Assembly (NCBI GenBank): GCA_964348785.1
Contig: CAYGDO010000005.1
Coordinates: forward strand, 1,188 to 65,187
DNA: 64,000 bases
Direction: 5' to 3'
From: an uncultured Candidatus Saccharibacteria bacterium
GTDB lineage: Bacteria; Patescibacteriota; Minisyncoccia; Phycocordibacterales; 2-02-FULL-43-11
Shown here: in pieces, positions 2,163 through 50,609 of the stretch
Numbering within the stretch: position 1 is the stretch's first letter
Layout: each line of letters begins with the position of its first letter
Made by a program: the position numbers and the translations under genes
The notes under the pieces: generated by a model
What the model saw: the letters and a program-made list of their open reading frames with translations, nothing else
Databases searched by the model: none
What the model was told of the DNA's origin: nothing

Positions 2163-3590
2163 ATGAATTTGTTTATTATTGGTCTTGCTCATATTAGACC
2201 TGAGCAGGTTGATGTTGTAAGAGGTCTTTCAAAAAAACATCAGATTTCTTATTGGGTCCGGATGGAGCATTTGTTCGAAATAGATAAGAGCGAATTTCCT
2301 AATACTATTTTTCATGATTATCGATCGGCTTTGGATGGCAAGTCGGCAAACGGAGTGGATGATTCAAGTTTTGAACCGTTATCTGAAGAACTTTTAATAA
2401 AGTTTTCTGAAACTGAGGCAGAAATTTTGACGATGATGGAAAAGAAATTTGAGTCTTGGGGGGTAAATCAGAGACGAGATTTTTATTTTGATTTAATGAG
2501 ATATTGGAAGGGTGTTTTTGAAAAATTTAAACCAGAATTAATTATTTTTTCTGATGTGCCACACGAAGTTTATTCTTTTGTTGTTTATGCTCTTGCTAAA
2601 CATTATGGTGTAAAAACTATAATGTTTGAAAACATTTTTGATTATGGAAGGCTGATGATTTTTAATGACTATAAATTTGGAAATAATCTTTTGGCAAAAG
2701 AAAGTAAAAATAATTTTCCCGATAATTATAGTTTAAAAGATTTAAGCGATTACACTAGAGCTTATTATGAAAAACAAACTTCTGGTAAAGATGAGACCCC
2801 GGTTTATGTGGCCAGTTACAATAAAGAACATAGTGGTTGGAGGAAATTTGCAAGAATGTCTCATGCCATCTGGCCTTTTATTAAAGATGGTTCAATCTTT
2901 GAGCGTGCCACAAGGTATTTTTTTAAACTTTTTAAATCTAATGTGATTAGAGATTATAAAAGATTAGAAATTACACCTGATTTTGATAAAAAATTTATTT
3001 ATGTGACCCTTCATCTCCAGCCAGAAAGAACGACTTCACCTCAAGGGGGTTATTTTGTTGATCAGTTGTTGATGATAAAAACTCTTTCATCAGCTCTTCC
3101 TAAAGATTGGCTTTTGTATGTAAAAGAACACCCAAGTCAGTGGAAGGCACACGGTAAGAGTTACACAGGTTACAGATACCCGGGTTTTTATGAAGAAATT
3201 GTTAAATTAAAAAATGCCAGGATCATTCCTATTACAACTAACAATTATAAATTAATTAAATCTTGTAAGGCAGTCGCAACTATTACAGGTATTCCAGGAT
3301 GGGAGGCCACTTTAAGAGGAAAGCCCGCCCTAATTTTTGGTTATTCATGGTTTATGTATGCTCCTGGGGTTTTTAGAGTTAAAAGCGTAGCCGATTGTAG
3401 GGAAGTTTTAAAAAAAATAGAAGTTGGCTACAAGGCAGATATGCAAAAAATGCTCAACTATACGGCTCTTTTAGATCGTGTCAGTTTTGAGGGTTTTAAT
3501 GATCATTCTGGTAGAAGGATGACAAAAATCCCTGATGAAGAAAATGCGAGCAATATGTTAAAAGCTATTCTTGGCGAATTGGAATCTTAG
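2163..3590 (+). CDS. Capsule-polysaccharide-biosynthesis (KpsC/KpsS, PF05159-like) protein; putative (non)ulosonic-acid glycosyltransferase.
   Basis: Motifs VTLHLQPERTTSPQGG...LLYVKEHPSQ and ITGIPGWEATLRGKPALIFG resemble the Capsule_synth family (Kdo-transferase-type retaining GT). It sits between an ABC exporter and a nonulosonic-acid pathway. The assignment is recalled from memory, not aligned. Confidence 0.45.
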   Translation: MNLFIIGLAHIRPEQVDVVRGLSKKHQISYWVRMEHLFEIDKSEFPNTIFHDYRSALDGKSANGVDDSSFEPLSEELLIKFSETEAEILTMMEKKFESWGVNQRRDFYFDLMRYWKGVFEKFKPELIIFSDVPHEVYSFVVYALAKHYGVKTIMFENIFDYGRLMIFNDYKFGNNLLAKESKNNFPDNYSLKDLSDYTRAYYEKQTSGKDETPVYVASYNKEHSGWRKFARMSHAIWPFIKDGSIFERATRYFFKLFKSNVIRDYKRLEITPDFDKKFIYVTLHLQPERTTSPQGGYFVDQLLMIKTLSSALPKDWLLYVKEHPSQWKAHGKSYTGYRYPGFYEEIVKLKNARIIPITTNNYKLIKSCKAVATITGIPGWEATLRGKPALIFGYSWFMYAPGVFRVKSVADCREVLKKIEVGYKADMQKMLNYTALLDRVSFEGFNDHSGRRMTKIPDEENASNMLKAILGELES

Positions 3591-3629
3591 CTTGATTTTG
3601 TGTCTATTTTTTGAGATTATTCATCCACT

Positions 3630-4650: not shown

Positions 4651-5724
4651 ATGAATAAAATTAAAAAATTTTCTAAAGTTTTTAAAGTAGGAAAAAGATT
4701 GGTTGGAGAAGGTGCTCCGGCTTTAATCATTGCTGATATTGGTGCTAATTTTGATGGTGATCTTGAGAAAGCCAAAAAATTGGCTCTAGCTGTAAAACAA
4801 TCAGGGGGTGATGTTGTTAAAATTCAAAGTTTTAAAGCAGATAAGATTGTTTCGGGTAGGGCGTTTTCCTCAATGAAATTGAAGGGGGTTCACGGCAGTT
4901 GGAATAAACCAATTGATGAGGTTTTTAAGTCAGCAGAATTTAGAAGAGAGTGGCATAAAGAATTTTTTGATTATTGTAAAAAAATTGGTATCGAAGTTTC
5001 TTCTTCTCCTTATGATTTTGAAGCGGTTGATTTGATGGAAAAGATTGGTGTCAATTTTTATAAAATTGGTTCAGGAGATATTACTTGGCATGAGATGCTT
5101 CGATATATTGGAGGTAAGGGAAAGCCTGTCATTTTAGCAACTGGCGCTAGTGATTTAGCTGAAGTTAGCGAAGCTGTCGAAGTTATTAGAAGTACTGGCA
5201 ATATGGATTTTGCTTTACTTCAATGTATTACAAATTATCCTTCAAGAATTGAAAGTGCCAATTTAAAAGTGTTGTCGGTTTATGAAAAAGTTTTTGATGT
5301 TATTACTGGTTATTCAGACCATACTCCTGGAGATACGGTAGTTTTGGGCGCTGTTGCTCTTGGTGCAAAAGTAATCGAAAAACATTTCACTTTAAATAAA
5401 AAAGATGCGGGACCTGATCATCCACATTCAATGGAACCAGAAGAGTTTTCTCTTATGGTCAAACATATTCGTGATATGGAAAGAGCTCTTGGTGATGGAG
5501 TTAAAAAAGTGGAGGAAGAAGAGAGTGAAACAGTTATTGTTCAAAGAAGGGGACTTTGCGTAAATAAAAAAATAAAATTAGGAGAGGTCTTCAAGAAAGA
5601 TAATGTAATTGAACTTCGACCGGCTCTTGGAATCTTGCCTAAATATAAGGAAGTTGTGATTGGTCATAAAGCTAAAAAAGACATGGAGGCCGGTAGCCCA
5701 ATAAAGTGGGAAGATTTGGCTTAA
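4651..5724 (+). CDS. Nonulosonic acid synthase, NeuB/PseI/LegI family (sialic-acid-synthase fold plus C-terminal SAF domain).
   Basis: ALIIADIGANFDGDLEKAKKLALAVKQSGGDVVKIQSF matches the NeuB N-terminal TIM-barrel signature. The C-terminal SAF-like segment is GLCVNKKIKLGEVFKKDNVIELRP. Confidence 0.8.
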   Translation: MNKIKKFSKVFKVGKRLVGEGAPALIIADIGANFDGDLEKAKKLALAVKQSGGDVVKIQSFKADKIVSGRAFSSMKLKGVHGSWNKPIDEVFKSAEFRREWHKEFFDYCKKIGIEVSSSPYDFEAVDLMEKIGVNFYKIGSGDITWHEMLRYIGGKGKPVILATGASDLAEVSEAVEVIRSTGNMDFALLQCITNYPSRIESANLKVLSVYEKVFDVITGYSDHTPGDTVVLGAVALGAKVIEKHFTLNKKDAGPDHPHSMEPEEFSLMVKHIRDMERALGDGVKKVEEEESETVIVQRRGLCVNKKIKLGEVFKKDNVIELRPALGILPKYKEVVIGHKAKKDMEAGSPIKWEDLA

Positions 5725-5727
5725 AAT

Positions 5728-6318
5728 ATGTCACTTTCAGAAAGAGAAAAATTTATTGCCTTAGTTAGTAATGACACTCTAAAAAAGTCTGATGCCATCG
5801 TTATCCTTGAAGGTGATGGCTTTAATCGAATTTCTCACGGGGCTTTTTTATTTAAGAATGGTTGGGCACCACTTATTGTTATCTCTGGGGGGATAGACAA
5901 GCCACCGCATAGTTTACCGGCAAAAGTTATGTTACCTGAACTTTTAAAGTTGGGTATAAAAGAGAGCTCTGTTTTGTTGGAAGAGAAATCAATGAACACC
6001 AGAGAGCAGGCTGTGGAGATTATGAAAATGGTTAAAGAGAAAAATTGGAAAAGTATTATAATTGTAGCGTCACATTATCATCAATATCGAGCTTACCTTA
6101 CGTTTTTAAAAGGTATGAAGGAAGCTGGTTTGGATATTTTGATTATCAATTCTCCAGCAAGAGATTTAAAATGGTTTGAAGATGATGAGAAAGCTAGTGG
6201 AAAAAGAGTAGATGTTTTGGAGAGAGAATTTGAAAAAATAGAGGAGTACAGTTTAAAAGGCCATATTGCTAGTTTTGAAGATGTCATTCTATATCAAATT
6301 TGGAAAGAAGCCCAATAA
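5728..6318 (+). CDS. DUF218 (YdcF/SanA/ElyC-like) domain protein.
   Basis: SDAIVILEGDGFNRISHGAFLFKNGWAPLIVISGG is typical of the DUF218 core. Confidence 0.55.
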   Translation: MSLSEREKFIALVSNDTLKKSDAIVILEGDGFNRISHGAFLFKNGWAPLIVISGGIDKPPHSLPAKVMLPELLKLGIKESSVLLEEKSMNTREQAVEIMKMVKEKNWKSIIIVASHYHQYRAYLTFLKGMKEAGLDILIINSPARDLKWFEDDEKASGKRVDVLEREFEKIEEYSLKGHIASFEDVILYQIWKEAQ

Positions 6319-6325
6319 AAATAAC

Positions 6326-6961
6326 ATGAAAAATGATGATGCAAAAAAAATAATGGGAGAAAATTTTATTGGATATGATGAAATCATTTCTATTTCTAAT
6401 GATTTGAATTTGGAAAAAATAGACATAGGCAGTGTTCCAGAAATTCCTTTTTCTGAAAAAGTTTTAAATGACAATAAAGATAACATTTTGATTTTGGGTG
6501 TTTCAAAACATAAAGATGGTTCGCCTCTAACTTTAAATAGTTTAAGAAATTTATTTGGACTGGATCCTGAAAAAAAAGAGCCCTGTTTTTACAACCAGGA
6601 TTGGTATTTGAAACAAGGTTTTGCCAACGAATCTTTGGAATCCAAATGGTATTTGGTAAAGAAAAATATAGAAGAAAAAACCAGGGGAGAGGAGCCTCAA
6701 AAAATAATTAGTGAATTAGATAACGGTGAATCTTTACCAAAAGCTGTAGTTACTGCTTATGTCTTTTTTGCAAATTATCTACTCAATAAAGAAATTTTGT
6801 GGGAGGGTGATTTTATCTGGTGTTCTGATTTGGATGATAATGGGGACAGGATTTATACAGGTAGATACATTGATCCATCAGGAAAAAATAAAAAAGGGTT
6901 TAACATCCATCGCCATTTAAGCATTCGTCCTTGTTATGGGGCCATTTTAGAAATAAAATAA
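6326..6961 (+). CDS. Hypothetical protein. Track ORF 6266..6961 starts at a TTG; the ATG at 6326 avoids overlap with the upstream gene.
   Basis: Long ORF with coding-like composition inside the glycan operon. No recognisable motif. Confidence 0.4.
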   Translation: MKNDDAKKIMGENFIGYDEIISISNDLNLEKIDIGSVPEIPFSEKVLNDNKDNILILGVSKHKDGSPLTLNSLRNLFGLDPEKKEPCFYNQDWYLKQGFANESLESKWYLVKKNIEEKTRGEEPQKIISELDNGESLPKAVVTAYVFFANYLLNKEILWEGDFIWCSDLDDNGDRIYTGRYIDPSGKNKKGFNIHRHLSIRPCYGAILEIK

Positions 6962-6963
6962 AA

Positions 6964-7281
6964 ATGGAAAACAATAATTTTAATTTAATAGACAGTGAGG
7001 AGAAGAGTTTGGTAGGTCTTCTTTATAACCACATTTCTTTTGGGACAACAATGGAGATGTTTAATGAGCTTGGCGAGGGGGGCTTAGCAAGATTAAATAA
7101 TTTAAGAAATGTTTTCCGTAAGTTGGTTTCCAAATATAATTTAACATCACAATTTAGCAGTCAGGATTTTTTGTTGTTAGGACTAATTGATTTTGTCAGT
7201 GATGAGGATTTAAAATATTTTAAGGAAAGTGGTAACAATCATTTAAAAAATCGAGTTTTGTATTTTACTAAGAGTAAATAA
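6964..7281 (+). CDS. Hypothetical small protein. Track ORF 6931..7281 starts at a TTG; ATG at 6964.
   Basis: ORF packed tightly between neighbours. No recognisable motif. Confidence 0.3.
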   Translation: MENNNFNLIDSEEKSLVGLLYNHISFGTTMEMFNELGEGGLARLNNLRNVFRKLVSKYNLTSQFSSQDFLLLGLIDFVSDEDLKYFKESGNNHLKNRVLYFTKSK

Positions 7282-7290
7282 TTAAACAAT

Positions 7291-8514
7291 ATGGCCAAAA
7301 AACAAAAAAAAATCCTTCGGGTGGGCAAAAAAGAAAGAGCTTATGTTGAAGAGGTTTTGAAGACTGAGTTTCGATCTTCAAAAGGTTGCAATATGCTTCG
7401 TCGATTTGAAGACGCCTTTTCAAAGAGATTTGGTGTTAAATATTCTGTGGGTCACACAAATGGTACAGCAACACTTCATTCTGCTTTGTTTGCGGTTGGG
7501 GTAAGAGCCGGGGATGAAGTAATTGTCCCGCCTCTTACAATGTCAGCAACAACTATGGCTGTTCTTCACGCTGACGCTGTGCCTGTTTTTGCTGATGTTC
7601 TAGAAGATACTTATCAAATTAATCCAAAATCAATTGAGAAATTAATTACTCCTAGAACAAAAGCAATTATTACAGTTGCTCTTTATGGTTTGTCACCTCA
7701 AATGGACGAAATAAAGAAAATTGCTAAGAAAAATAATATTAAAGTTATTGAAGATGATGCCCAGTGTTTTCTAGGAGAATATAAAGGAAAGTTAGTTGGC
7801 ACTTTGGGTGATGTTTCAAGTTTTAGTTTTCAAAGCAGTAAACACATGACAGCAGGAGAAGGTGGAATGGTTTGTACTGACGATTTAGAAATTGCTGATA
7901 AGGTTAGAAGATTTTCTGTTTTAGGTTATGCGAGCGTTTCTGCTAAAGTGGGGAAAATTACAAAAAATGATATTCAAAATCCAAATTACGACAGACATTC
8001 TGAAATGGGATTTAATTATAGAATGTCAGAACTTTGTGCCGCAGTCTCTTTTGGTCAGTTAGAAAGATTGGATGAATTGGTACAAAGGAGAATAGATGTT
8101 GCTAATTTGTTTATTAAAACAATAGGTAATTGTAAATGGCTTAAGGTCCAAAAGACTCCAGATGACTGCAAACACTCATATTGGGCCTTGCCAGTAAGGA
8201 TGCTTCATCCAACTATTTCTTGGGCAGATTTTAGAAAGAAATTTATGGAATTTGGTGGCGATGGAATTTATGCCACTTGGAAGTTGACTTATTTGGAACC
8301 AATGTTTAAGACCTTAAATTTTTCTGGAAAGGAAACCGTGATCAAGGCTACGTACAAAGGCACAATGCAAAAGTTTGAAAAAGGTCTTTGTCCTGTTGCC
8401 GAAAAACTTCAAAAAGAAATTTTAGCTTTTAAGACAAATTATTGGGATTGGGGTAGGGCTTTGAAACAAGCAGAAATTTTAAAAAAGACTATAGAGTTTT
8501 ATGATAAAAAATAA
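7291..8514 (+). CDS. DegT/DnrJ/EryC1/StrS-family PLP-dependent sugar aminotransferase (PseC/ArnB-like).
   Basis: Conserved PLP-lysine context SFSFQSSKHMTAGEGGMVCTDD; N-terminal GVKYSVGHTNGTATLHSALFAVG; family-typical length. Confidence 0.85.
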   Translation: MAKKQKKILRVGKKERAYVEEVLKTEFRSSKGCNMLRRFEDAFSKRFGVKYSVGHTNGTATLHSALFAVGVRAGDEVIVPPLTMSATTMAVLHADAVPVFADVLEDTYQINPKSIEKLITPRTKAIITVALYGLSPQMDEIKKIAKKNNIKVIEDDAQCFLGEYKGKLVGTLGDVSSFSFQSSKHMTAGEGGMVCTDDLEIADKVRRFSVLGYASVSAKVGKITKNDIQNPNYDRHSEMGFNYRMSELCAAVSFGQLERLDELVQRRIDVANLFIKTIGNCKWLKVQKTPDDCKHSYWALPVRMLHPTISWADFRKKFMEFGGDGIYATWKLTYLEPMFKTLNFSGKETVIKATYKGTMQKFEKGLCPVAEKLQKEILAFKTNYWDWGRALKQAEILKKTIEFYDKK

Positions 8515-9253
8515 AAGAGTTATTGCAACTATTCAAGTAAGATTGACCTCTTCTCGTTTGCCGGGAAAAGCCATGTTGCCTCTTGCTGGAAAACCGGTCA
8601 TAGAGCATATGATTGAAAGGCATCGAAAAAGTAAGTACACAGACGAAGTTGTCGTTGCAACCACCACAAACAAAACTGATGATCCGATTGCTGAATTTTG
8701 TAAAAAAATATCTTGTCCTTGTTGGAGAGGAAGTGAAGAAGATGTTTTATCTCGTGTGACTGACGCTGCCAGAAGTCAAAAAGCAGATATTGTGGTCCAA
8801 GGAATGGCAGACAGCCCTCTTGTTGATTTTAGGATTGTAGACAGACTTTTGGAGATGTTGATAGATAGTGAGACTGAATACGTAAGCAATGAAATAGAAG
8901 AATCTTTTCCTGTTGGCTTTGATGCTAGGGCTTTTTTGTTTAGTGCTATCGAAAAAAGTGAACGTGTTGGGAAAGACCAAATGTATCGCGAGCACGCAGG
9001 ATATTATATTTTTTCTCATCCAAAAGAATTTAAGCAAATTAATTGGAAAGCTGAAGGTGAGATGTTTTGGCCAAAACTTAGACTGACTTTAGATACTAAG
9101 GAAGATTATGAATTGATCAGTGCAGTTTACGATGCTCTGTATCCTAAAAATAATGACTTTTCTTCTTTAGATGTGGTAAAGTTCTTGAGACAGCATCCTG
9201 AATTGGTCGCAATTAATAGTGATGTCCTGCAGAAAAAACCAACTAATAATTAA
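8501..9253 (+). CDS. Acylneuraminate/pseudaminate cytidylyltransferase-family protein (CTP_transf_3; NeuA/PseF/SpsF-like).
   Basis: N-terminus IATIQVRLTSSRLPGKAMLPLAGKPVIEH matches the cytidylyltransferase P-loop-like motif. It overlaps the aminotransferase gene end, which suggests an operon. Confidence 0.7.
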   Translation: MIKNKRVIATIQVRLTSSRLPGKAMLPLAGKPVIEHMIERHRKSKYTDEVVVATTTNKTDDPIAEFCKKISCPCWRGSEEDVLSRVTDAARSQKADIVVQGMADSPLVDFRIVDRLLEMLIDSETEYVSNEIEESFPVGFDARAFLFSAIEKSERVGKDQMYREHAGYYIFSHPKEFKQINWKAEGEMFWPKLRLTLDTKEDYELISAVYDALYPKNNDFSSLDVVKFLRQHPELVAINSDVLQKKPTNN

Positions 9254-9259
9254 AAAATT

Positions 9260-10120
9260 ATGAAAATTATTAAAAAGATTAGTATCGAAGAATTACCAAA
9301 GTGGTCTTCATGGCCAGCAAGAATTTTTGGATTGAAAGAATGGAAAAATGTCCAAAGAGGAGTAGGGAAGGTGGAACAAGAATATAATAAAGAAAAATAT
9401 GCTGAGTGCTTGGAATTGTATAGGAAAGCTACAAAAAAACCGTCAGTTGGGGAAATAAAAAAATTTGAATATAGAGATTTTGCTGGAAAAGTTTGTATTT
9501 CTTTCCGAAATAAACTTGTAATTGTAAAAGCTGAGGATGCTCTTAAAGAGTATTATGAAATGATTTTAAAGACCCTTACACCTCTTATAAAAGATGGTGA
9601 TGCAGTTTTAGAACTTGGTGCAGGTTATGGATATAATCTGGATCTCCTCCGAAAGAAAATAAAAAAAGATGTGAAGTTTTATGGTGGTGAATATTCAGAG
9701 AATGCCGTTACTTTAGGAAATGAAATTTTTAAAAATGATAAAAACCCAATCAATTTGGAAGTTTTTAATTTCTATGATGAGGAATATAAAATTTTAGAGA
9801 AAATTGATAGGCCTGTTGTTTTGTTTACAGCTCATGCTATTGAACAGATTCCTGATATCAGCAATATGTTTAAGGCCTTGAAGAAGTATAAAAATAAAAT
9901 TAAAGCAGTTGTTCATTTTGAACCAGTCTATGAACTCCATGACGATTCTTTACTTGGGATGATGAGAAAGGCTTACGCAAACGCCGTTGATTATAGTAGA
10001 AATTTGATGAGTGAATTAAAGAAAAATGAAGATATAAAGGTGCTTTCTGTTAAGCCAGATTTTCTTGGTTATAATCCTCTGAATTCAACTTCGGTCATAA
10101 AGTGGCAGTATAAAAAATAG
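9260..10120 (+). CDS. Class I SAM-dependent methyltransferase (putative sugar-modifying).
   Basis: Motif I-like VLELGAGYGYNLDLL; last gene of the glycan operon before the high-GC island. Confidence 0.5.
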   Translation: MKIIKKISIEELPKWSSWPARIFGLKEWKNVQRGVGKVEQEYNKEKYAECLELYRKATKKPSVGEIKKFEYRDFAGKVCISFRNKLVIVKAEDALKEYYEMILKTLTPLIKDGDAVLELGAGYGYNLDLLRKKIKKDVKFYGGEYSENAVTLGNEIFKNDKNPINLEVFNFYDEEYKILEKIDRPVVLFTAHAIEQIPDISNMFKALKKYKNKIKAVVHFEPVYELHDDSLLGMMRKAYANAVDYSRNLMSELKKNEDIKVLSVKPDFLGYNPLNSTSVIKWQYKK

Positions 10121-10271
10121 GGAACCTGGCGGATGCTTTCTGAGTAGCTTCTGCTATTCGTCTGCCGGTGTTTAAGAAAGAGACCTCTATTGCACATAAT
10201 GAATTATTGTGTTATTATTTAAAATGGTAGTTTTTTGAATTTGAACAGGCAACAATCAACTTAACACAGAC

Positions 10272-11096
10272 ATGAATACACGAGAAAGTGCGGAAAAGGC
10301 TCTTCGGACGTTCAGCTTCAGTGGCCAGGCACGGCAGATTTCTGTTCCCATTGCTACGGCAACTCAGGGGATGATGCTCGGGTTTCAACCTTTCGGCGTC
10401 GTTTCTTGTTCGTTGGAAGATGGCCGGGACCTTCTGGTCGTTTCGGCCTACTACGAGTCGGCGGTGTGCCTCGCTAAAGTTCGGGTGATTGGCGAGTACC
10501 TCGATTTCGATGTGGAATGGGTCCGTGGTGCCAAGAACACTGTCCGGCTTTTCCCCAACCTCGACCCGGTCGTCGGCGGTAATCGTTGTTACGTCGCTTA
10601 CATCGACAATGATGGGAACATTGTTGTCGGTCGCGGGGAACGCAAGCTCTATGTGCTCGAACGGAGCGCCGAAGGTTGGGAGTACAACGGCAAGATGATT
10701 CAACTGCCGGATCACGACAGTGGCGAGTACTTCTACGTGGTTTACGCGAACGAGGTCGAGCCGGGGGTCATTGAGACCAACGAGCATGATGCTCGCGCGC
10801 GTTGGCAGATGCGACGTTATGGTCTACGGAAGACAGGCCTTTGGGAGGTGATAACTGATATCGACCTTCCCCAGTTTTGTCATCGGTGTGCTCCCCGGGA
10901 GGATATCCTTTCGGTTTTCGATCGAAGGGTAATTTCTCGGTCTGGAATAAGCGGGAAAACGTTTGAAGTTTCAGGCACTGGCGTGGCACCACTTTCAAGC
11001 GGCGGTCACGTCGTTGTCGACTACGGTCAATACGAACCCTCAAGTCCCTTCAATGGGGCGCCTGGTTCGCTCACCTACATTCCTCCGGCTTCGTAG
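10272..11096 (+). CDS. Hypothetical protein encoded in a high-GC (about 55-58% GC) island. Strand and frame are uncertain.
   Basis: Longest ORF (274 aa) within a compositionally foreign roughly 1 kb segment. Several overlapping ORFs are open on both strands, as expected for GC-rich DNA. No recognisable domain. An AT-rich promoter-like stretch lies immediately upstream. Confidence 0.4.
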   Translation: MNTRESAEKALRTFSFSGQARQISVPIATATQGMMLGFQPFGVVSCSLEDGRDLLVVSAYYESAVCLAKVRVIGEYLDFDVEWVRGAKNTVRLFPNLDPVVGGNRCYVAYIDNDGNIVVGRGERKLYVLERSAEGWEYNGKMIQLPDHDSGEYFYVVYANEVEPGVIETNEHDARARWQMRRYGLRKTGLWEVITDIDLPQFCHRCAPREDILSVFDRRVISRSGISGKTFEVSGTGVAPLSSGGHVVVDYGQYEPSSPFNGAPGSLTYIPPAS

Positions 11097-11163
11097 CTGG
11101 CTATCGGTTCTTTCAGCCCTGTCGCTTCTCGCGTCGGGGCTTTTTTATTGTTACTATTTTAAA

Positions 11164-11994
11164 ATGTTTGGTTTTATTTTGGCAATTTCTGGAAGTTTGT
11201 TTAATGAATTATCTGACACGATAGGCAAGAAAAAGATTGAAGATAAAAAAGTAGGTGTTTACACAATTGGTTTTTTGACTGTTATTTTCGGTTTTGTTTT
11301 TTATGCTGTTTCTGCTTACTTTAGAAATTCTTTTGTTTTTTCTTTAGATTCTTTGCCGACTTTTGTCGTGAGAATGATTGCAGAAACTATTTTAAATTAT
11401 GTTGTTATAAACGCTTTAGCAAAAGCCGATCGTAGCACTTTTGGCTTTGTAAGATCTCTTACAATCCCGCTTCTTTTGATTACTGATTTGTTTATGGGTT
11501 ATTCCATATCAAACACTAAGTTGTTGGGCATTTTTATAATTTTTGTTTCTATTTTTTTTATCTTTTTCTCTAAGGACATAAATAAAAAAGGTATAGGTTT
11601 ACTTGTGACTGGTTCGATTTTAGCTGTTATTACTTTGTCTATTTATAAGTATGATATTAAGCATTTTAATTCTGTTGAAGGAGAACAAATGATGGCTTCA
11701 TTGATAAACATCATTTTCTTTTTCTTGATGGCAAAATTTAAGGATAAAGAAAATCCATTCATTTTTCTTAAAAAACCAATTTTCCTTGCGCAAGCAATTT
11801 TTAGTGGGTTTTCTTCTGTTTTGGGAGGTTTTGCTTATCTTTTTGGTTCGCCGTCCGTTATTGTTACGACTTTAAGAGGAAGCGCCATATTATTTTCTAC
11901 TTTGTCAGGAGATTTTTATTTTAAAGAAAAGAAACTATCTACGAAATTGGCACTATCTTTTTCTATTGTTATTGGTTTGATTTTTTTAATCTAA
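11164..11994 (+). CDS. Multi-pass membrane protein (EamA/DMT-like topology). Track ORF 10963..11994 is a 5' over-extension into the high-GC island.
   Basis: Starting at the ATG at 11164 (MFGFILAISG...) gives roughly 8-10 hydrophobic helices. The upstream ORF part lies in foreign-composition DNA. Confidence 0.5.
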   Translation: MFGFILAISGSLFNELSDTIGKKKIEDKKVGVYTIGFLTVIFGFVFYAVSAYFRNSFVFSLDSLPTFVVRMIAETILNYVVINALAKADRSTFGFVRSLTIPLLLITDLFMGYSISNTKLLGIFIIFVSIFFIFFSKDINKKGIGLLVTGSILAVITLSIYKYDIKHFNSVEGEQMMASLINIIFFFLMAKFKDKENPFIFLKKPIFLAQAIFSGFSSVLGGFAYLFGSPSVIVTTLRGSAILFSTLSGDFYFKEKKLSTKLALSFSIVIGLIFLI

Positions 11995-12033: not shown

Positions 12034-14283
12034 ATGGAAAATTTTTTAAGAAAATCAATAATTGGACTTTTGTTTTTATCAGTTTTGACACCTTTTATAG
12101 TGGCGGAAACAATGTTTTTCCCATTTATAACAGGCAAGAATTTCTTTTTTAGAATCCTGACTGAGATTGCCTTTTTTTTGTGGTTATCTTTGATGTTGTA
12201 TAAACCTCAATTTAGGCCAAGATTTTCTTTTATTTCTGTTGCTTTGGTGATATTTACGACTATTGTGTTGATTGCCGATATTTTTGCTGAAAATCCAGCT
12301 AAAGCTTTTTGGAGCAATTTTGAAAGAATGGAAGGATTTGTGACTATGATTCATCTTCTGGCTTATTTTATAGTCATCGGTTCAGTATTTAACACAAAAA
12401 AGCTATGGATGTGGTTTGCAAGAGCTTATGTTAGCAGTAGTTTTTTGATGAGTCTTTTCTCAAGCGGACAATTGTTCTTCAATTCTAGTTTCTATAAAAA
12501 TAGTATAAGTGGCAGTTTGGGAGAGTCCACAGCAAAATTTTTAGGAGATTTTTTTGTAATCAATCAAGGAGGTGTTCGTGTTGATGGTAGGTTAGGTAAT
12601 GCAGCATATCTTGCAGGTTTTCTTTTGATTAGCTTTTTTGTAGCCTTGTTTTTGGTTTATAAAGACAAAATAAGAAATTGGAGAATTTTTTATATTATTG
12701 CTTTATTGCTAAATCTTTTTGTTTTGTATAGCACGGCGACAAGAGGGGCGATTCTTGGACTGTTTGGTGGATTATGCGCTACGGGTATTTTAATTTTGAT
12801 TTTTGAAAAAAAGGATATTTTGATAAGAAAAATATCAATGATAGCGCTTGGTATTGTAATCGTGTCAGGACTTTTTGTTTTTGTGGCTAAGGATTCTGAT
12901 TTTGTAAAACAAAATCCTACTCTGTCGCGCCTCTCAACGATTTCTATAAAAAGCGGTGACGCCCAAGCTCGTTTTATGATTTGGAATATGGCATTTGAAG
13001 GTTTTAAAGAGAGGCCAATTTTGGGTTGGGGACAAGAAGGTTTTAATTTTGTCTTCAATAAATATTTTGACCCTAAAATGCACAATAGGGAACAGTGGTT
13101 TGATAGGACTCATAATATCTTTTTTGACTGGTTAATTTCCGCTGGTATCTTTGGTCTTTTGTCTTATCTATCACTTTTAGTTTTGATTTTTGTTTATATT
13201 TGGAAAGTTAAAGGTTTACCGGAATCCAAGTTTGGTTTTTCTATATCAGAGAAAGCCATTCTCACTGGTTTAGTGTTGGCTTATGCTTTTCATAACATCT
13301 TTGTTTTTGACAACATTGTGAGTTATCTAATGTTCTTCTCTTTGTTGGCTTTTTTCCATCACGATCGATCTTCAGAGTTTAAGAAAATTGATTATAAAAA
13401 CGAAGTTGCCGTTGGAGACATAAAAAGTTTCTACGGGCCAATATTTTTGGTGTTGTTTTTGCTAACCGTTTATTTTGTTAATGGAAAAGCATTTATGGCA
13501 TCAGGTGATTTGATTAAAGCTTTGAAATCTCAAAAAGAGGGTGTAAATAAAAATTTAGATATTTTGGAAAAGGCTCTAAGTCACAATTCTTTTGCTAATC
13601 AGGAAATTAGAGAGCAAATGTATCAGATGGCTGTTACCATTAATTCACCGAACATAAATATTGATGGAGCTATAAAATCTAGATCTCTCGCCTTGGCAGA
13701 AAAAGAGTTACGAAAACAAGTAGTGGAGACACCAACAGACGCTAGGGGGTATGTATTTTTGGGATCTCTTCTATCATTTGTTGGCAATAGAACTGATGCA
13801 GTTAATTTTATGGAGACTGCTTTAAAACTTTCTCCAAAGAAACAGGTGATTAAGCTGGCGTTAGCTGAAAATTATTTAAAATTAGGAGATGGTGAAAAAT
13901 CTTTCACACAAGCAAGGGAAGCATATGAGCTCGCTCCACAGTTTAGAGATTTGGCTACTAATTTTAGTATTTTTGCTATTTATACAGGAAAACTCGATGA
14001 GGCTAAAAAGGTGCTTATTAAAGAGTATGGTACAGAGTTTCCTTTAGAACCTAGAATTTTGAAAGCCTACTCTGACATTGGTTATAGACAAAAAGTTCTT
14101 GATGCTATTAGACAAAATATAACTAAAACTCCAGATAATACTGAATTATACATACTGTTGGCACAGATATATTTAGACGGTGGGATGAAGCAGGGTGCTA
14201 TAGATGCCCTAAGAAGCGGTATAAAAAATGTCCCTTCTTTTAAGGACCAAGGAGAGCAATATATTAAACAAATTAGTTCGTAA
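12034..14283 (+). CDS. O-antigen ligase-like (Wzy_C) polytopic membrane protein with a C-terminal TPR repeat domain.
   Basis: Many TM helices; the YSTATRGAILGLFGG region resembles the Wzy_C/O-antigen ligase loop. The C-terminal roughly 250 aa are TPR-like (LALAENYLKLGDGEKSFTQAREAYELAP...). The track start at 11998 is a TTG; ATG at 12034. Confidence 0.65.
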   Translation: MENFLRKSIIGLLFLSVLTPFIVAETMFFPFITGKNFFFRILTEIAFFLWLSLMLYKPQFRPRFSFISVALVIFTTIVLIADIFAENPAKAFWSNFERMEGFVTMIHLLAYFIVIGSVFNTKKLWMWFARAYVSSSFLMSLFSSGQLFFNSSFYKNSISGSLGESTAKFLGDFFVINQGGVRVDGRLGNAAYLAGFLLISFFVALFLVYKDKIRNWRIFYIIALLLNLFVLYSTATRGAILGLFGGLCATGILILIFEKKDILIRKISMIALGIVIVSGLFVFVAKDSDFVKQNPTLSRLSTISIKSGDAQARFMIWNMAFEGFKERPILGWGQEGFNFVFNKYFDPKMHNREQWFDRTHNIFFDWLISAGIFGLLSYLSLLVLIFVYIWKVKGLPESKFGFSISEKAILTGLVLAYAFHNIFVFDNIVSYLMFFSLLAFFHHDRSSEFKKIDYKNEVAVGDIKSFYGPIFLVLFLLTVYFVNGKAFMASGDLIKALKSQKEGVNKNLDILEKALSHNSFANQEIREQMYQMAVTINSPNINIDGAIKSRSLALAEKELRKQVVETPTDARGYVFLGSLLSFVGNRTDAVNFMETALKLSPKKQVIKLALAENYLKLGDGEKSFTQAREAYELAPQFRDLATNFSIFAIYTGKLDEAKKVLIKEYGTEFPLEPRILKAYSDIGYRQKVLDAIRQNITKTPDNTELYILLAQIYLDGGMKQGAIDALRSGIKNVPSFKDQGEQYIKQISS

Positions 14284-28574: not shown

Positions 28575-31500
28575 ATGTCTGCTGGATTGAAAATTGAAGA
28601 TAGAAAATTTATACCCTCGAAGGATGCTTCGAAGTTATCTGGTTATGCTCCGGATTATATTGGTCAGCTTTGTAGAGGTGGAAAACTTGAATGTAGAAGG
28701 GTAGGCAGATCCTGGTTTGTTGAAGAAACCTCTTTGGTTAAACATTGCCAAATTAACGGCAATGATAAACCTCTAACTCAGGAGTCGGTACCGGGTTATA
28801 AGTCTTCCGGTTTTGAAATTGAGGACAAAGACAGGGTTTATGTGGCTTCGGACTTTAAAGTTGAGAATAAACAAGAGAATGAAAAAACAGCTCTCCCAAA
28901 GGTTGAGGAAATAAAATCCCTTTCTAACGTTGTCATTTTAGAAAACTCAAAAATTAGCCCATCTTCTTCCGGTGCATTGAGTTTAAAGAACAACCTAAAG
29001 ACCAGTCTTTTGAAATTGCCAAAGTTCCCAAAGATTGATCCTGACTTTTTGCATAAAATTTATTCACTCACTGTTTCAGTCGCTGTCGTTACTTTTGTCT
29101 TTTTTGCTAGAGGTTCTTCTTTTACCGAAACAGTTTCTTTATTTGCAAAAAATTCTTTTGATAACTTGAATTCTGGTTTTGTGGCTTTGGTTCAAGATTT
29201 TAGTAATTTGACCCCAAAGGTTTTGGCCAATAATTTTGCTTACGGTTTTGAAAATAAAATAGACAAAAAAGAATCCGGATTGATTTCTAGTTTTGTGAAT
29301 CATCAAGTATTCAATTTTGGGAAAAAAGCTTCTCTTGTTTTTAATACAACTAAATTTGCTTCTTTGGAGTTTAAAGATAATCCTATCGGTTTTGGTAAAA
29401 ATACCGCTTTAGTAATTTTTGAAAATAGTTCAAACAAGGTTTCAGGTTTGGCAAAAAATATTTCTGGTATGCCAGATAGATTTGCTTTTTACTTGTCTAG
29501 TCAAAAAGTTTTAATTAATGATTTGATGGTTGTTACGGCTTCAATTTCTGAAAGTCTTAAACAAGATCCTCTTTTCCCAATTAAAGAATTTGCTAAGAAC
29601 GTAAATTTGGAAACAGATAAGTACATTAACAATGGCAAAAATTTTGTTTTGAGTTTGTTTGATAGAAGCAAATTACCAAATCAATTTATCGTGGTTTATA
29701 AAGTTGATGGAACTAAAAAATTACAAAAGACTCCTGCTTCACAGATTTACATTGAAGGACCAAGACAGGTTGTGCAAAACGTAACGCAACAAATAAAAGT
29801 TTCTGGAGTGACAAAGGAAGAAGTCGAATCAATGCTTGCTTCTTTAAATACAAAACTTTCAAGTGAAATTTATAAAATATCAAGTGCCACAAATAGTAAT
29901 GGCGTTTATATAAATAATGTTTACAATACTGTTTCTCATACAAACAAAATAGATAAATTGGGTTCTATTGAAATCTCTAATTCCACAATTACCGGTTCAA
30001 CATTTAGCGGAACAACTGGAGTTTTCTCTGAATCAGTTTCTATCGGTGGAACATTGGCAGTAACTGGATCTTCAACTTTCTCAGGTAATACAAATTTTGA
30101 TTCTGGAGTTTTATATATTGATTCTGTAAATAACAGAGTTGGAATTTCAACCACAACTCCGGGATTTACTCTTGATGTTGATGGAACAATTAATGCGACA
30201 GCTTTGTATGTTAATGGTTCTCCTTACATAGGCAGTCAATGGACAACTTCTGGCACTGATGTTTATTACAACGGTGGAAATGTTGGCATCGGCACATCTT
30301 CCCCTTATGGGTTGCTTTCTGTCGTCGGTGAAATTATTGCAGAAAAATTTACAGCCACTTCAACTACAGCAACAAGCACTTTTGGAGGAGGTTTGTCGGT
30401 TTTGGGCAATATAAATTTTAATGGAGAGCTTCTTCAAGACAATGCTCCATTTGTTGGTAGTCAATGGACTAGCACTTCAACTGGAGTTTATTACAATTCT
30501 GGTAACGTTGGAGTAGGTACAACTTCTCCAACTGATTTGTTTTCAGTCGGTGGAGTAGTTTATATTGCTTCAACCACTTCACCATCTGTAGCTACTAACA
30601 GACTTTATAATTCCTTTGGAGATTTATATTGGAATGGAAATCTTTTGAGTTCTGGATCAATTGGCACTTGGACATCTTCTGGTGGAAATGTTTATCGTGG
30701 TTCAGGATTTGTCGGAATTGGTAGCACAACTCCTTTTGTGACATTAGCTGTTGGTGGTGATGCTTATGTTGACGGCAATTTAACTGCTTCAAACATAACA
30801 GCAACTGGCACTGCAACATTTAGAAATATTTTGGCAACATCTTCTACCACCCTCCAAAACTTCACTTTCCAAAATGCTACAGGTACACAAGCAACTACAA
30901 CTAATTTCTTCTCTTCAATCTTTAACGGCATCACAGGAATCTTTTCTTCTTTAACTTCTGGTTCTGCCACTTTCGGTTCGTTAACGGCAACATCTTCAGT
31001 AAATCTTTCTTATGCTGGCGCTGGTAATAACATGCTCCTCACCACAGATGGATCAGGAAATGTTGTTGGAAGTTCTACTCCACAAGTGGCTTCGATTAAT
31101 GCGACAAGTACGACGGCGACTTCCACATTTACAAATTTATTTGCTAATCAATCAATTCTTGGGACTATTATTGGCGGCACTTGGAACGGTTCTACGATCG
31201 CTCAATCTTATGGTGGTACAGGATTTAGTTCATACACCGCTGGAGATGTTTTGTATGCAAATGGTTCTGGCAATTTAACAAAACTTCCAATTGGAGCTGA
31301 TGGTTTGGTTTTGAAAATCACTGGCGGTCTTCCAGATTGGCAGGCAGATGTGACTAATAGCGGAGCGGCGGGATTGTGGGCAACATCAACTGACAGTCTA
31401 GTTCTTTATCCTACTGATTCGGCAGACGTTTTAGTTTTAGGAGGAACTGCTACCACTACAACTGGAAATATTTTAGAAGTTATTGGTAATTCAAGATTAG

Positions 31501-45610: not shown

Positions 45611-45716
45611 CCCCGTTAGAGATTTAACATCATTAAGTTTTGTAACGTAACTACTAATTAGAGTAACCCATGTATAATTTAGTAACATATAAAAAGTAAA
45701 TGAATCTCTAACGGGG
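45611..45716. repeat. 14-bp perfect inverted repeat pair (CCCCGTTAGAGATT ... AATCTCTAACGGGG) enclosing a 78-bp AT-rich segment with a TGTATAAT -10-like box, directly upstream of the GIY-YIG gene.
   Basis: Arms at 45611-45624 and 45703-45716 match exactly as reverse complements. TATAAT at 45673-45678. Confidence 0.5.
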
Positions 45717-45727
45717 TAGATAAAACT

Positions 45728-45988
45728 ATGATTTATACTTACATACTAAAAAGCGATAAAGATGGAATGTTATATACAGGTTGCACGTCAGATTTACGGA
45801 AGCGTTTTAAGGAGCATAATGCTAACAAGGTTGTTGCGACTAAATCTCGGGGGCCGTTTACTATTATCTATTACGAAGCTTGTATAGATGATCATGACGG
45901 TTTTACTAGAGAGAAATATTTGAAAACGGGTATGGGTAAAAGATATTTAAAAAATCGTTTAAAACGCTTCCTTACTCTAACGGTCTAA
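45728..45988 (+). CDS. Small GIY-YIG nuclease-superfamily protein (UPF0213/YhbQ-like).
   Basis: IYTYILKSDKDGMLYTGCTSDLRKRFKEHN matches the GIY-(10-11)-YIG motif plus conserved Arg and Glu. 86 aa. Confidence 0.75.
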   Translation: MIYTYILKSDKDGMLYTGCTSDLRKRFKEHNANKVVATKSRGPFTIIYYEACIDDHDGFTREKYLKTGMGKRYLKNRLKRFLTLTV

Positions 45989-46036
45989 AGGAAGATAAGA
46001 AGATAAATCAAAAATGAAAAATCAAATATCATAAAT

Positions 46037-48322: not shown

Positions 48323-48334
48323 AAAGATAAATCA

Positions 48335-48352
48335 ATCCGCCAGCTGGCGGAT
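48335..48352. repeat. 18-bp perfect palindrome ATCCGCCAGCTGGCGGAT just after the paralog 2 stop; possible terminator or protein-binding site.
   Basis: Perfect dyad symmetry and GC-rich relative to surroundings, flanked by A/T-rich sequence. Confidence 0.4.
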
Positions 48353-48431
48353 AAAAATCAAATATTAAAAATATGAAGATAAAAATGACCAGTTTTCAAT
48401 TTAAGAAAGACAAAATGCAAAAAATAAAAAA

Positions 48432-50537: not shown

Positions 50538-50609
50538 AAATAAATTAAATATTAAAAAAACCAAAGAACATCCGTAGACATCCGACATCTACAGAATCAA
50601 AAATAAAAG

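Follow-up and report, generated by a model that had tools for sequence, protein, structure and literature searches.

The stretch of DNA analysed here (the window, 64 kb in length) carries a GC-rich island of about 1 kb at the end of a nonulosonic-acid operon, between a methyltransferase gene and a gene for a membrane protein. A single protein-coding gene on the plus strand, here called gene X, and its terminator account for the island. The features of this part of the window are as follows.

9260..10120, plus strand: SAM-dependent methyltransferase gene, last conserved gene of the nonulosonic-acid operon (weak methyltransferase Pfam matches)
10121..10172, plus strand: GC-rich hairpin directly 3' of the methyltransferase stop codon, probably the terminator of the nonulosonic-acid operon
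10191..10218, plus strand: putative promoter of gene X, extended -10 type, TGCACA-16-TATTAT after TG (consensus scan)
10215..10787, minus strand: 190-aa antisense ORF, not a gene (no Pfam match)
10272..11096, plus strand: gene X, 274 aa, predicted soluble beta-propeller of an uncharacterised family (homologues, dN/dS, model)
10768-11043, minus strand: 91-aa antisense ORF, not a gene (codon-usage by-product)
10809..10985, plus strand: hypervariable segment of gene X, aa 180-238, about one blade (allele comparison)
11115..11147, plus strand: intrinsic terminator of gene X, stem-loop 11115-11141 plus T6 (fold and conservation)
11164..11994, plus strand: EamA/DMT-family membrane protein gene, host-like and AT-rich (Pfam EamA; GC3 0.245)
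12034..14283, plus strand: gene for a Wzy_C (O-antigen ligase/polymerase-like) and TPR membrane protein (Pfam match)

The base composition changes abruptly at both ends of gene X. In 200-nt windows the GC content is 0.27-0.37 up to position 10299, 0.51-0.57 from 10300 to 11099 and 0.28-0.34 after 11100, which bears out the claim of the first-pass annotation that GC rises from about 33% to above 55% (about 0.33 to 0.55 between 10278 and 11140). The 825-nt coding sequence has a GC content of 0.550 against 0.360 +/- 0.038 (maximum 0.458) for the other windows of that size across all 64 kb (z = 5.0), and measured against the first 28 kb alone (0.339 +/- 0.023) its z is about 9. Cumulative GC change-points fall at 10278 and 11140 and thus match one coding sequence and its terminator, while the promoter region stays host-like and AT-rich. 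GC3 is 0.59 in gene X and about 0.25-0.26 in its neighbours, a difference of +0.33; GC1 and GC2 are raised too, and Gly, Ala, Arg and Pro are over-represented in the protein (GARP fraction 0.29 versus 0.17-0.22 in the neighbours).

A jump of this kind is what a chimeric or contaminated assembly would produce, and such an assembly had been offered as one explanation of the island. The jump is all that speaks for it. Two separate runs (L001 and L002) yielded assemblies with identical junctions, syntenic diverged alleles of gene X occur in four further samples (L003, L004, L044/L045 and L052), and the flanking intergenic DNA is homologous across the alleles. These observations refute the claim and leave an assembly error with a practically negligible probability. 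The open reading frames that had been described, 274 aa on the plus strand and 190 and 91 aa on the minus strand, are present. The long minus-strand frames are an artefact of GC-rich codon usage. In the antisense frame that is in register with the codons, stops arise only from the sense codons TTA, CTA and TCA, which GC-rich genes avoid, and in low-GC members of the family the frame is closed by 9-15 stops. In the other frames stops are as frequent as in synonymous shuffles; isolated depletions in frames +3 and -3 are the exception, and these are not conserved from one family member to the next. An overlapping antisense gene was rejected on the basis of these shuffle tests and the lack of conservation. 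A structured RNA was rejected as well; two weak Rfam matches near the terminator lie far below their gathering scores, and no match in the window reaches the gathering threshold.

Gene X is a real coding gene, as is evident from its homologues, its dN/dS of 0.13-0.22 and a confident all-beta model of its product. An initial search recovered 8 homologues and an exhaustive search 55 clusters at 50% identity, with 28-70% identity to gene X and similar length. The family alignment has 38 invariant columns and the motifs LGFQP, AVCLAKV, VRLFPD..NR and GNG..L.dGs..v..YGQ..PGpFNG.PG.L.Y.P. It had been stated that the island holds no recognisable protein family, and comparison of gene X with Pfam, NCBIfam, PDB sequences and Rfam indeed gave no match. 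The AlphaFold2 model is all-beta (pLDDT 78, pTM 0.80), with low pLDDT at residues 201-231. Foldseek and profile matches are to propellers throughout, albeit generic ones with a TM score of at most 0.39 to solved propellers. When Pfam profiles were run on 56 members the best matches were Tachylectin (E 0.006) and NHL (0.03), each in 2 of the 56 and below the curated threshold, and PDB profile matches gave E = 0.01-0.05. No signal peptide, transmembrane segment or lipoprotein sequence was found in gene X. The product is accordingly predicted from the model to be a soluble beta-propeller resembling NHL/tachylectin repeats, and it is probably cytoplasmic. It would share with NHL and tachylectin-2 propellers an all-beta, propeller-like architecture of about 270-280 aa, and its C-terminal blade aligns with the NHL repeats of TRIM2/3. 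It differs from them in its low structural similarity to solved propellers and in the motifs particular to its family, and the weak NHL, tachylectin and Reg_prop profile matches (best E about 0.006-0.05) stay short of any curated threshold. On account of the nonulosonic-acid context a sialidase of the GH33 type was also considered and rejected; neither the Asp-box (S-x-D-x-G-x-T-W) nor the FRIP motif occurs in any of the 56 members, and there is no sialidase among the top 50 Foldseek PDB matches. A phage origin was likewise rejected. No viral contig carrying the family was found, PADLOC profiles gave no match to the family, and the only PHROGs match had E = 0.01 in one of eight members.

As sampled, the family belongs almost entirely to the CPR. 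Ten of the 11 named genome loci that carry it are Patescibacteria MAGs, and the closest relatives of the backbone genes MurB, Wzy and EamA are from Parcubacteria/Taylorbacteria MAGs. Relatives more than 60% identical to gene X all lie in the same AT-rich synteny, and the remainder, at most 41% identical, are almost all from the CPR. A search of about 15 billion proteins returned no GC-rich donor and no relative above 40% identity outside this clade. At 26 of the 29 loci outside the clade of the window, homologues of glycan genes (CMP-sugar synthetase, DegT, PseB-like, NeuB, ABC, EamA, Wzy or MurB) lie within about 7 kb of gene X. The family is a habitual part of CPR nonulosonic-acid and envelope-glycan loci, in which it is nearly always found. 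The CPR/Patescibacteria are mostly uncultivated and widely regarded as episymbionts, and their surface chemistry is almost unknown. Our literature search on the CPR and nonulosonic or pseudaminic acid found no paper linking the two.

Comparison with close relatives places gene X at the start of a variable zone. The DegT, CTP-transferase and methyltransferase genes are 89-95% identical among the relatives, the methyltransferase (in amino acids) equally so in relatives with and without the island, and divergence begins directly after the methyltransferase stop codon. The methyltransferase gene forms the left edge of the zone. Gene X occupies the same site in several relatives. In L046-L050 the site is empty, and the methyltransferase gene is followed by an unrelated 46-bp spacer and then by a different Wzy allele. 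The suggestion of a novel small cargo gene is supported in this sense, since gene X is autonomous and accessory, belongs to an uncharacterised family and is missing at the homologous site in close relatives. The EamA gene is a second presence/absence element of the zone by the same sequence comparison. It is missing in L003, L004 and L044, where the gene X terminator abuts ATATTGCTTTATTTC, which follows the EamA gene in the window; EamA genes also neighbour gene X in L014, L015, L035, L037, L017 and L018. The Wzy protein of the window is 65-67% identical to the alleles of relatives that carry gene X and 46% identical to the allele of the empty-site relatives; the Wzy/TPR allele type co-varies with the presence of gene X.

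The transcription signals argue that gene X is a self-contained unit. The hairpin at 10121-10172 folds at -24.6 kcal/mol (z = -5.6), and in L003 and L004 its place is taken by another, stronger hairpin with a T-run after it. The AT-rich, promoter-like stretch reported upstream of gene X does contain TGCACA-16-TATTAT with an upstream TG, and the block TTGTGTTATT(A/G)T is kept at the same promoter position in the L003, L004, L044 and L052 alleles. From this conservation we infer that the site at 10191-10218 acts as the gene X promoter. The hairpin with a T-run that had been noted at the end of the island is present and is conserved in L003, L004 and L044 (-17.8 kcal/mol, z = -3.8). Hairpins on both sides together with the conserved promoter block suggest that gene X is an autonomous unit with a putative promoter of its own. 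As had also been noted, there are no convincing flanking repeats. The best pair around gene X is an AT-rich, chance-level match of 18 nt with 83% identity (10218-10235 versus 11158-11175), which was rejected as a target-site duplication because it is missing from the empty site and from the other alleles. The 64-kb window contains no tRNA gene, and no signature of mobility (integrase or transposase, tRNA target, direct repeats) was detected around the island, whose neighbours are glycan and housekeeping genes.

Five diverged alleles of gene X, a minimum count, were found at this same site, with 64-79% amino acid identity. The alleles of L003, L004, L044/L045 and L052 have a GC content of 0.50-0.55 between flanks at about 0.31-0.33, GC3 is 0.54-0.59 in all five, and the alleles differ at about 47-49% of their shared 4-fold sites. 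The alleles are mosaics produced by intragenic recombination. Pairwise mosaic blocks are visible among them, max-chi-square breakpoints were as extreme in none of 500 permutations in five pairs, and a PHI-like test on 99 informative sites gave a value as low in none of 1000 permutations. Between L004 and L044, identity is 96-100% in the flanks and gene ends but 16-86% inside gene X. Our proposal that gene X evolves much faster than the genome had to be qualified; MurB and Wzy are as diverged as gene X between some lineages, the nonulosonic-acid genes being unusually conserved, although the L004-L044 contrast is still specific to gene X. Variation is concentrated in the segment of aa 180-238. 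Nucleotide identity among alleles is 37-65% at 10809-10985, with indels, and 60-95% in the remaining coding sequence; dN is 0.44-1.02 in the segment versus 0.09-0.26 elsewhere in the gene. A hypervariable segment and mosaicism could point to programmed antigenic variation of the DGR, vls or pilS type, just as the long antisense frames could point to an antisense gene or a structured RNA as the functional element. All of these are most improbable. Searches of the 64-kb window by tblastn and blastn found neither a second copy of gene X nor a template repeat or silent cassette, and the variation, which extends over about 750 bp and includes indels and numerous synonymous changes, is unlike the A-specific mutagenesis of a DGR. 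Codon usage accounts for the antisense frames, which are not conserved, and no Rfam match reaches its gathering score.

The origin of the GC excess was approached through the divergence of the alleles. A recent horizontal acquisition of a 1-kb segment from a GC-rich donor had been put forward, and it would explain both the sharp contrast at all codon positions and in amino-acid content and the presence or absence of gene X among relatives. The claim is unsupported as stated. Gene X is older than the radiation of its five alleles, which differ at about 47-49% of shared 4-fold sites and have site, promoter and terminator in common. Its promoter region has the AT-rich composition of the host, CPR glycan loci are the native setting of the family, and no donor was found among about 15 billion proteins. 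A recent transfer is very unlikely. In the clade of the window the excess is most simply explained by an old acquisition from a source richer in GC, with gene X still ameliorating. Under an HKY model with host 4-fold frequencies (host 4-fold GC about 0.22), an ancestor with GC4 of 0.80-0.85 reproduces both the present GC4 of 0.54-0.59 and the 4-fold difference of 0.47-0.49. An early claim of ours, that neutral evolution cannot leave GC3 so high, was withdrawn since the modelled decay from GC4 of about 0.8 fits. Site patterns fit decay (chi2 about 4, lnL -129.4) slightly better than stationarity (chi2 about 10, lnL -132.2), a contrast drawn from 81 sites on a star tree, which mosaicism violates, and with a delta lnL of only about 3. 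In L018 the GC-rich island covers gene X and the adjoining EamA gene, as would be expected if a DNA segment had been transferred.

A different account holds that a gene-specific force keeps gene X GC-rich in situ, so that the excess reflects an equilibrium instead of being a relic. GC-biased gene conversion (gBGC) at a recombination hotspot is the foremost candidate, with selection on mRNA stability or codon choice as further candidates; the raised GC1 and GC2 argue against pure codon-usage selection. Gene X is a demonstrable recombination hotspot, its GC change-points coincide with the coding sequence and terminator beside an AT-rich promoter, all five alleles have kept GC3 at 0.54-0.59, and protein searches found no GC-rich donor. 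Family-wide, GC3 of gene X exceeds that of the host in 19 of 24 loci, by up to +0.58, and is uncorrelated with it (r = 0.20). At least four separate clades show an excess of +0.3 to +0.58, and the L017 and L018 proteins are only 46% identical, yet GC3 is 0.85-0.91 in both genes and 0.33-0.42 in their hosts. This decoupling implies that simple amelioration is insufficient unless there were several unsampled GC-rich donors. Recombining bacterial genes have a higher GC content, most strongly at GC3 (PMC4450053), and gene X combines intragenic recombination with raised GC in the same manner. The site-pattern test, however, does not favour equilibrium, the adjoining and equally diverged Wzy gene is AT-rich, and L008-L010, L016 and L037 show no GC3 excess or even a deficit. 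Reported effects of gBGC in bacteria amount to a few GC3 points, far below the +0.3 to +0.58 of gene X, and the genome-wide effects of Lassalle et al. 2015 are reportedly far smaller than the +0.33 GC3 of gene X or the +0.58 of its relatives. We consider a GC-maintaining force a minority possibility. Somewhat more doubtful still is its broader form, in which gene X would be a chronic recombination hotspot under gBGC or another gene-specific GC-favouring force across the CPR, with a hypervariable blade that may set nonulosonic-acid glycan specificity. If such a force were real, gene X would be, to our knowledge, the most extreme single-gene case in bacteria.

The preferred reading, to which we assign a probability of roughly 0.6, is that the island is an old, self-contained, single-gene accessory cassette with mosaic alleles, encoding a glycan-linked propeller, whose GC content is the legacy of an old acquisition. 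The cassette would run from the terminator of the upstream operon through a putative extended -10 promoter and the 274-aa coding sequence to an intrinsic terminator. In the clade of the window it opens the variable part of the locus and is tied to one type of Wzy/TPR allele. Its alleles are reshuffled by homologous recombination that has its breakpoints both within gene X and in the conserved ends. From the predicted fold and the neighbourhood, the product may bind or modify a glycan or a nonulosonic-acid precursor, with the variable blade perhaps setting specificity and phage or host-interaction pressure perhaps maintaining diversity. The acquisition from a GC-richer genome (ancestral 4-fold GC about 0.8) would predate the allele radiation, and gene X would still be ameliorating toward the host value. 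The analysis thus delimits a beta-propeller family without a name, about 55 clusters in size, that recurs in CPR nonulosonic-acid and envelope-glycan loci. In one clade its gene behaves like a serotype-type determinant: some relatives lack it, its several alleles are mosaic, and one blade is hypervariable. This makes it a candidate for a factor that sets specificity in attachment to hosts or in evasion of phages. A sharp GC island of such a kind need not mean misassembly or recent transfer, and the decoupling of family GC from that of the hosts offers a compact natural test of slow amelioration against gBGC in bacteria.

The arrangement resembles several known systems. As in O-antigen and capsule variable regions, conserved precursor genes adjoin a zone that differs in genes and alleles, including a Wzy-type gene whose allele co-varies with accessory genes; homologous recombination in conserved flanks and atypical composition are also shared. 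The present locus differs in its CPR host, in breakpoints inside gene X that produce mosaics, and in that gene X encodes, instead of a glycosyltransferase or acetyltransferase, a beta-propeller of an uncharacterised family. O-antigen and capsule variable regions are usually AT-richer than the genome, whereas gene X is far GC-richer. Like small islands or 'morons', gene X is an autonomous, compositionally distinct unit between host genes that is present or absent among relatives, but it is an old gene with several alleles at one fixed site and lacks a phage or mobile context, an integrase, repeats and viral copies. Compared with Borrelia vlsE/vls, gene X has no adjacent silent cassettes and no lipoprotein or signal sequence, and its variation is seen between lineages. 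It shares with vlsE the character of a hypervariable, recombination-diversified gene that is far GC-richer than its AT-rich genome, the vlsE/vls locus being itself GC-rich in an AT-rich genome.

Composition along the window delimits a real island with sharp bounds. GC in 200-nt windows runs at 0.27-0.37 up to 10299, at 0.51-0.57 over 10300-11099 and at 0.28-0.34 past 11100, and the cumulative GC change-points (10278 and 11140) correspond to the start codon (10272) and the terminator-stem end (11141) of the plus-strand ORF termed gene X. The GC jump reported by the first-pass annotation was borne out, as the 825-nt ORF has a GC of 0.550 (z = 5.0) against 0.360 +/- 0.038 (maximum 0.458) for all other 825-nt windows of the 64 kb. 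Codon-position values (GC1/GC2/GC3) are 0.62/0.44/0.59 in X versus about 0.43/0.26/0.25 in neighbour genes, and A is scarce at third positions of X (0.11 versus 0.30-0.33). A search for repeats flanking the island gave none convincing, in agreement with the annotation. The window holds no tRNA genes, and an Rfam scan returned nothing at a family's gathering score and two weak sub-threshold matches near the X terminator. Elsewhere, a 41% GC block at 30-42 kb (background about 34%) is accounted for by one giant 4,735-aa ORF at 28575-42782.

Features of the island and its surroundings
10121-10172: strong hairpin directly past the stop codon of the methyltransferase gene (MT); fold -24.6 kcal/mol, z = -5.6
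10191-10218: extended -10 promoter-like site, TGCACA-16-TATTAT with TG before it, within an AT-rich stretch
10272-11096, plus strand: X coding sequence, 274 aa
11115-11141: stem of the intrinsic terminator of X, followed by T6; conserved
11164-11994, plus strand: EamA-family membrane protein gene; clean indel, host-like AT-rich composition

Judged from its sequence, this succession of hairpin, promoter-like site, coding sequence and conserved terminator makes X an autonomous monocistronic unit, presumably transcribed from the promoter-like site. The AT-rich promoter-like stretch and the hairpin with T-tract had both been noticed at first pass and stand, the former with a core, TTGTGTTATT(A/G)T, that is conserved among other X alleles. 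Other lineages have the same layout, the GC island reaching from the start codon to just beyond a downstream GC-rich hairpin. In two contigs carrying X alleles, L003 and L004, the hairpin past MT is another one, stronger still and followed by a T-run. The window's post-MT hairpin (L003 counterpart at 3544-3600) is wholly unlike in sequence to those of L003, L004 and two further X-bearing contigs, L044 and L052, with the strong stem kept; the structure may have been replaced, or may have diverged with its fold retained.

The first-pass annotation had allowed for a chimeric or contaminated assembly. This is excluded because the window's exact X protein is found with identical neighbours on contigs of two separate sequencing runs (L001, L002), and diverged alleles in four further samples (L003, L004, L044/L045, L052) occupy the same site with the same MT upstream and the same GC contrast (gene 0.50-0.55, flanks about 0.31-0.33 for all alleles at this site). 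The product matches nothing in Pfam, NCBIfam, PADLOC, PHROGs or PDB sequences, consistent with the earlier failure to recognise a protein family. A word-indexed search returned eight homologues of like length (28-70% identity) and an exhaustive search 55 clusters at 50% identity. The alignment of eight X sequences has 38 invariant columns, with motifs including LGFQP, AVCLAKV, W.RG, VRLFPD..NR and GNG..L..G....YGQ..PG.PFNG.PG.L.Y.P, and dN/dS among X alleles is 0.13-0.22. The plus- and minus-strand ORFs listed previously are all present; those on the minus strand were rejected as genes and result from composition. In the antisense frame aligned with the codons, stops arise solely from sense TTA, CTA and TCA, codons avoided by GC-rich genes. 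Members of the family with low GC carry 9-15 antisense stops, and stop counts in the remaining frames mostly fit synonymous shuffles.

X is present or absent at this site. In five related loci (L046-L050), with an MT about 89-90% identical to that of the window, the site is empty: past the MT stop come a 46-bp spacer of unrelated sequence and a different allele of the Wzy_C/TPR membrane protein gene (Wzy), 46% identical in amino acids. Three haplotypes are distinguished: MT-Wzy(B) without X, MT-X-Wzy(A), and the window's MT-X-EamA-Wzy(A'). EamA (window 11148-11994) is missing from L003, L004 and L044, where the X terminator abuts ATATTGCTTTATTTC, which follows EamA in the window; EamA genes also adjoin X in six other loci (L014, L015, L035, L037, L017, L018). 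In L046, SecA (8282-10832) is seemingly in two pieces, an 85-aa N-terminal and a 296-aa C-terminal one, and the 451-aa ORF between them, without Pfam match, may be an intein or inserted element. The inter-allele identity of X, 64-79%, is by itself unexceptional because background divergence across lineages is large (MurB 60-75%, Wzy 46-67%); upstream nonulosonic-acid genes are 89-95% identical. Over window 7291-10120, DegT, CMP-sugar synthetase and MT are 89-95% identical in amino acids to those of L003, L044 and L046 (dS 0.5-0.7, dN 0.02), and the operon looks either recently shared between lineages or constrained to an unusual degree.

Pairwise identity maps of X alleles show mosaic blocks. 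In the L004/L044 pair, nucleotide identity is 96-100% in MT, promoter, terminator and Wzy (96% in amino acids) and also at both ends of X (the first ~25 nt and the last ~100 nt), but the X interior has 16-86% identity, indels and many third-position differences. L003 and L052 share 96-100% identity over 10810-11100 and 62-87% upstream of it; for L044 and L052, identity is complete (100%) at 10121-10240, and one internal block stands at 98%. Maximum chi-square breakpoints were matched by 0 of 500 permutations in five allele pairs, and a PHI-like incompatibility test on 99 informative sites found none of 1000 permutations as low. Silent or partial X copies are absent from the 64-kb window. Residues 180-238, which coincide with the low-confidence region of the structure model, are hypervariable (dN 0.44-1.02 versus 0.09-0.26 elsewhere; omega 0.3-0.57 versus 0.06-0.33). 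Within the 3' block recently shared by L003 and L052, this segment has nonsynonymous changes only (pN 0.03, pS 0.00; W->C, P->L, R->C, S->N), and the short C-terminal remainder has the opposite pattern (pS 0.12, pN 0.00). The former pattern hints at a variable blade under positive selection, with sites too few for a test.

Family members with higher GC3 also have higher GC12 (slope 0.195, r = 0.83), which indicates a DNA-level cause of the GC excess and disfavours pure codon selection. The argument that neutral evolution cannot leave X GC3 so high after such divergence was dropped after explicit modelling. Under HKY with host 4-fold frequencies (GC4 of 0.22), decay from an ancestral GC4 of 0.80-0.85 arrives at the alleles' GC4 (0.54-0.59) with a pairwise 4-fold difference equal to theirs (0.47-0.49). 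The strong/weak-state spectrum of 81 shared 4-fold sites is fitted by decay (chi2 ~4, lnL -129.4) no worse than by stationarity at the frequencies of X itself (chi2 ~10, lnL -132.2). The recent transfer proposed at first pass is not supported; the most economical account for the window's clade is that X was acquired long ago from a GC-richer source, which would have been before the allele radiation, with amelioration still under way.

Old acquisition alone explains neither the family-wide upward GC3 offset nor the L017/L018 pair, two loci whose X proteins are just 46% identical. X GC3 exceeds that of its flanks in 19 of 24 loci (mean offset +0.145) and is uncorrelated with median flanking-gene GC3 (slope 0.24, r = 0.20, p = 0.34).

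GC3 of X and of its flanks, extremes among compared loci
L021: X 0.66, flank 0.21
L018: X 0.85, flank 0.42
L017: X 0.91, flank 0.33

The main alternative, GC-biased gene conversion at a recombination hotspot (PMC4450053), would keep X GC-rich. Conversion of the magnitude needed for X would, to our knowledge, be unprecedented. X would be of greater interest if a gene-specific GC-elevating force were shown. In L018, of a Magasanikbacteria lineage, the GC-rich island (5580-7625; 0.50-0.58 versus about 0.42) takes in X and the adjacent EamA, as expected under transfer of a DNA segment, and suggests that the two moved as one.

Of the named-genome loci with X, 10 of 11 are Patescibacteria (CPR) MAGs (Falkow-, Magasanik-, Taylor- and Saccharibacteria, Parcubacteria and one unclassified Patescibacteria group member); the one other locus bears the label uncultured gammaproteobacterium. 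The viral contigs searched lacked the family. For MurB, Wzy and EamA of the window, the nearest counterparts come from Parcubacteria/Taylorbacteria MAGs (40-47% identity). Among 29 loci from beyond the window's clade, 26 have X no more than ~7 kb away from homologues of its CMP-sugar synthetase, DegT, PseB-like dehydratase, NeuB, ABC exporter, EamA, Wzy or MurB genes in the window. Four homologues (L011 at ~8200, L025, L030 and L042, one labelled Falkowbacteria) have a single in-frame TGA at a family-invariant Trp codon (...FDFE*IRG...), for which a nonsense mutation common to all four (pseudogene), read-through and recoding are possible explanations.

From the alignment of eight sequences, AlphaFold2 predicted an all-beta protein (pLDDT 78, pTM 0.80). 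Foldseek searches of the PDB and viral libraries gave mostly generic beta-propellers (DDB1, Sec12, GH43, PON1, NHL proteins; TM <= 0.39), profile searches gave weak matches to tachylectin-2 and TRIM2/3 NHL propellers, and a few family members had weak Pfam matches (Tachylectin, NHL, Reg_prop). Asp-box and FRIP motifs, looked for across the family, are not present, and no signal peptide or TM segment is predicted. Q39, Y60, R92, R105, R121, W136, E171 and Y183 are among the residues that at least 90% of 56 members have in common, and these positions can reasonably be read as a putative pocket binding an acidic sugar. X encodes a predicted, uncharacterised beta-propeller, met almost exclusively among CPR genomes. 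Fold, conservation and neighbourhood point to a likely role in binding or modifying a glycan or nonulosonic acid, in which the hypervariable blade would set specificity.

The island amounts to an accessory gene that is old, autonomous, subject to recombination and present in some relatives but not in others, situated where the nonulosonic-acid/glycan locus is variable. The novel small cargo gene is the one first-pass interpretation upheld. X is a variable-region gene of a surface-glycan locus and differs from known genes of this kind in its inverted composition, unnamed protein family and CPR host. Four tandem paralogous genes at 43400-52910 (701-766 aa), notable next to a nonulosonic-acid locus, each encode three Laminin_G_3 (ConA-like lectin) domains, and three of the four are weakly similar to sialidase N-terminal or trans-sialidase C-terminal lectin domains.
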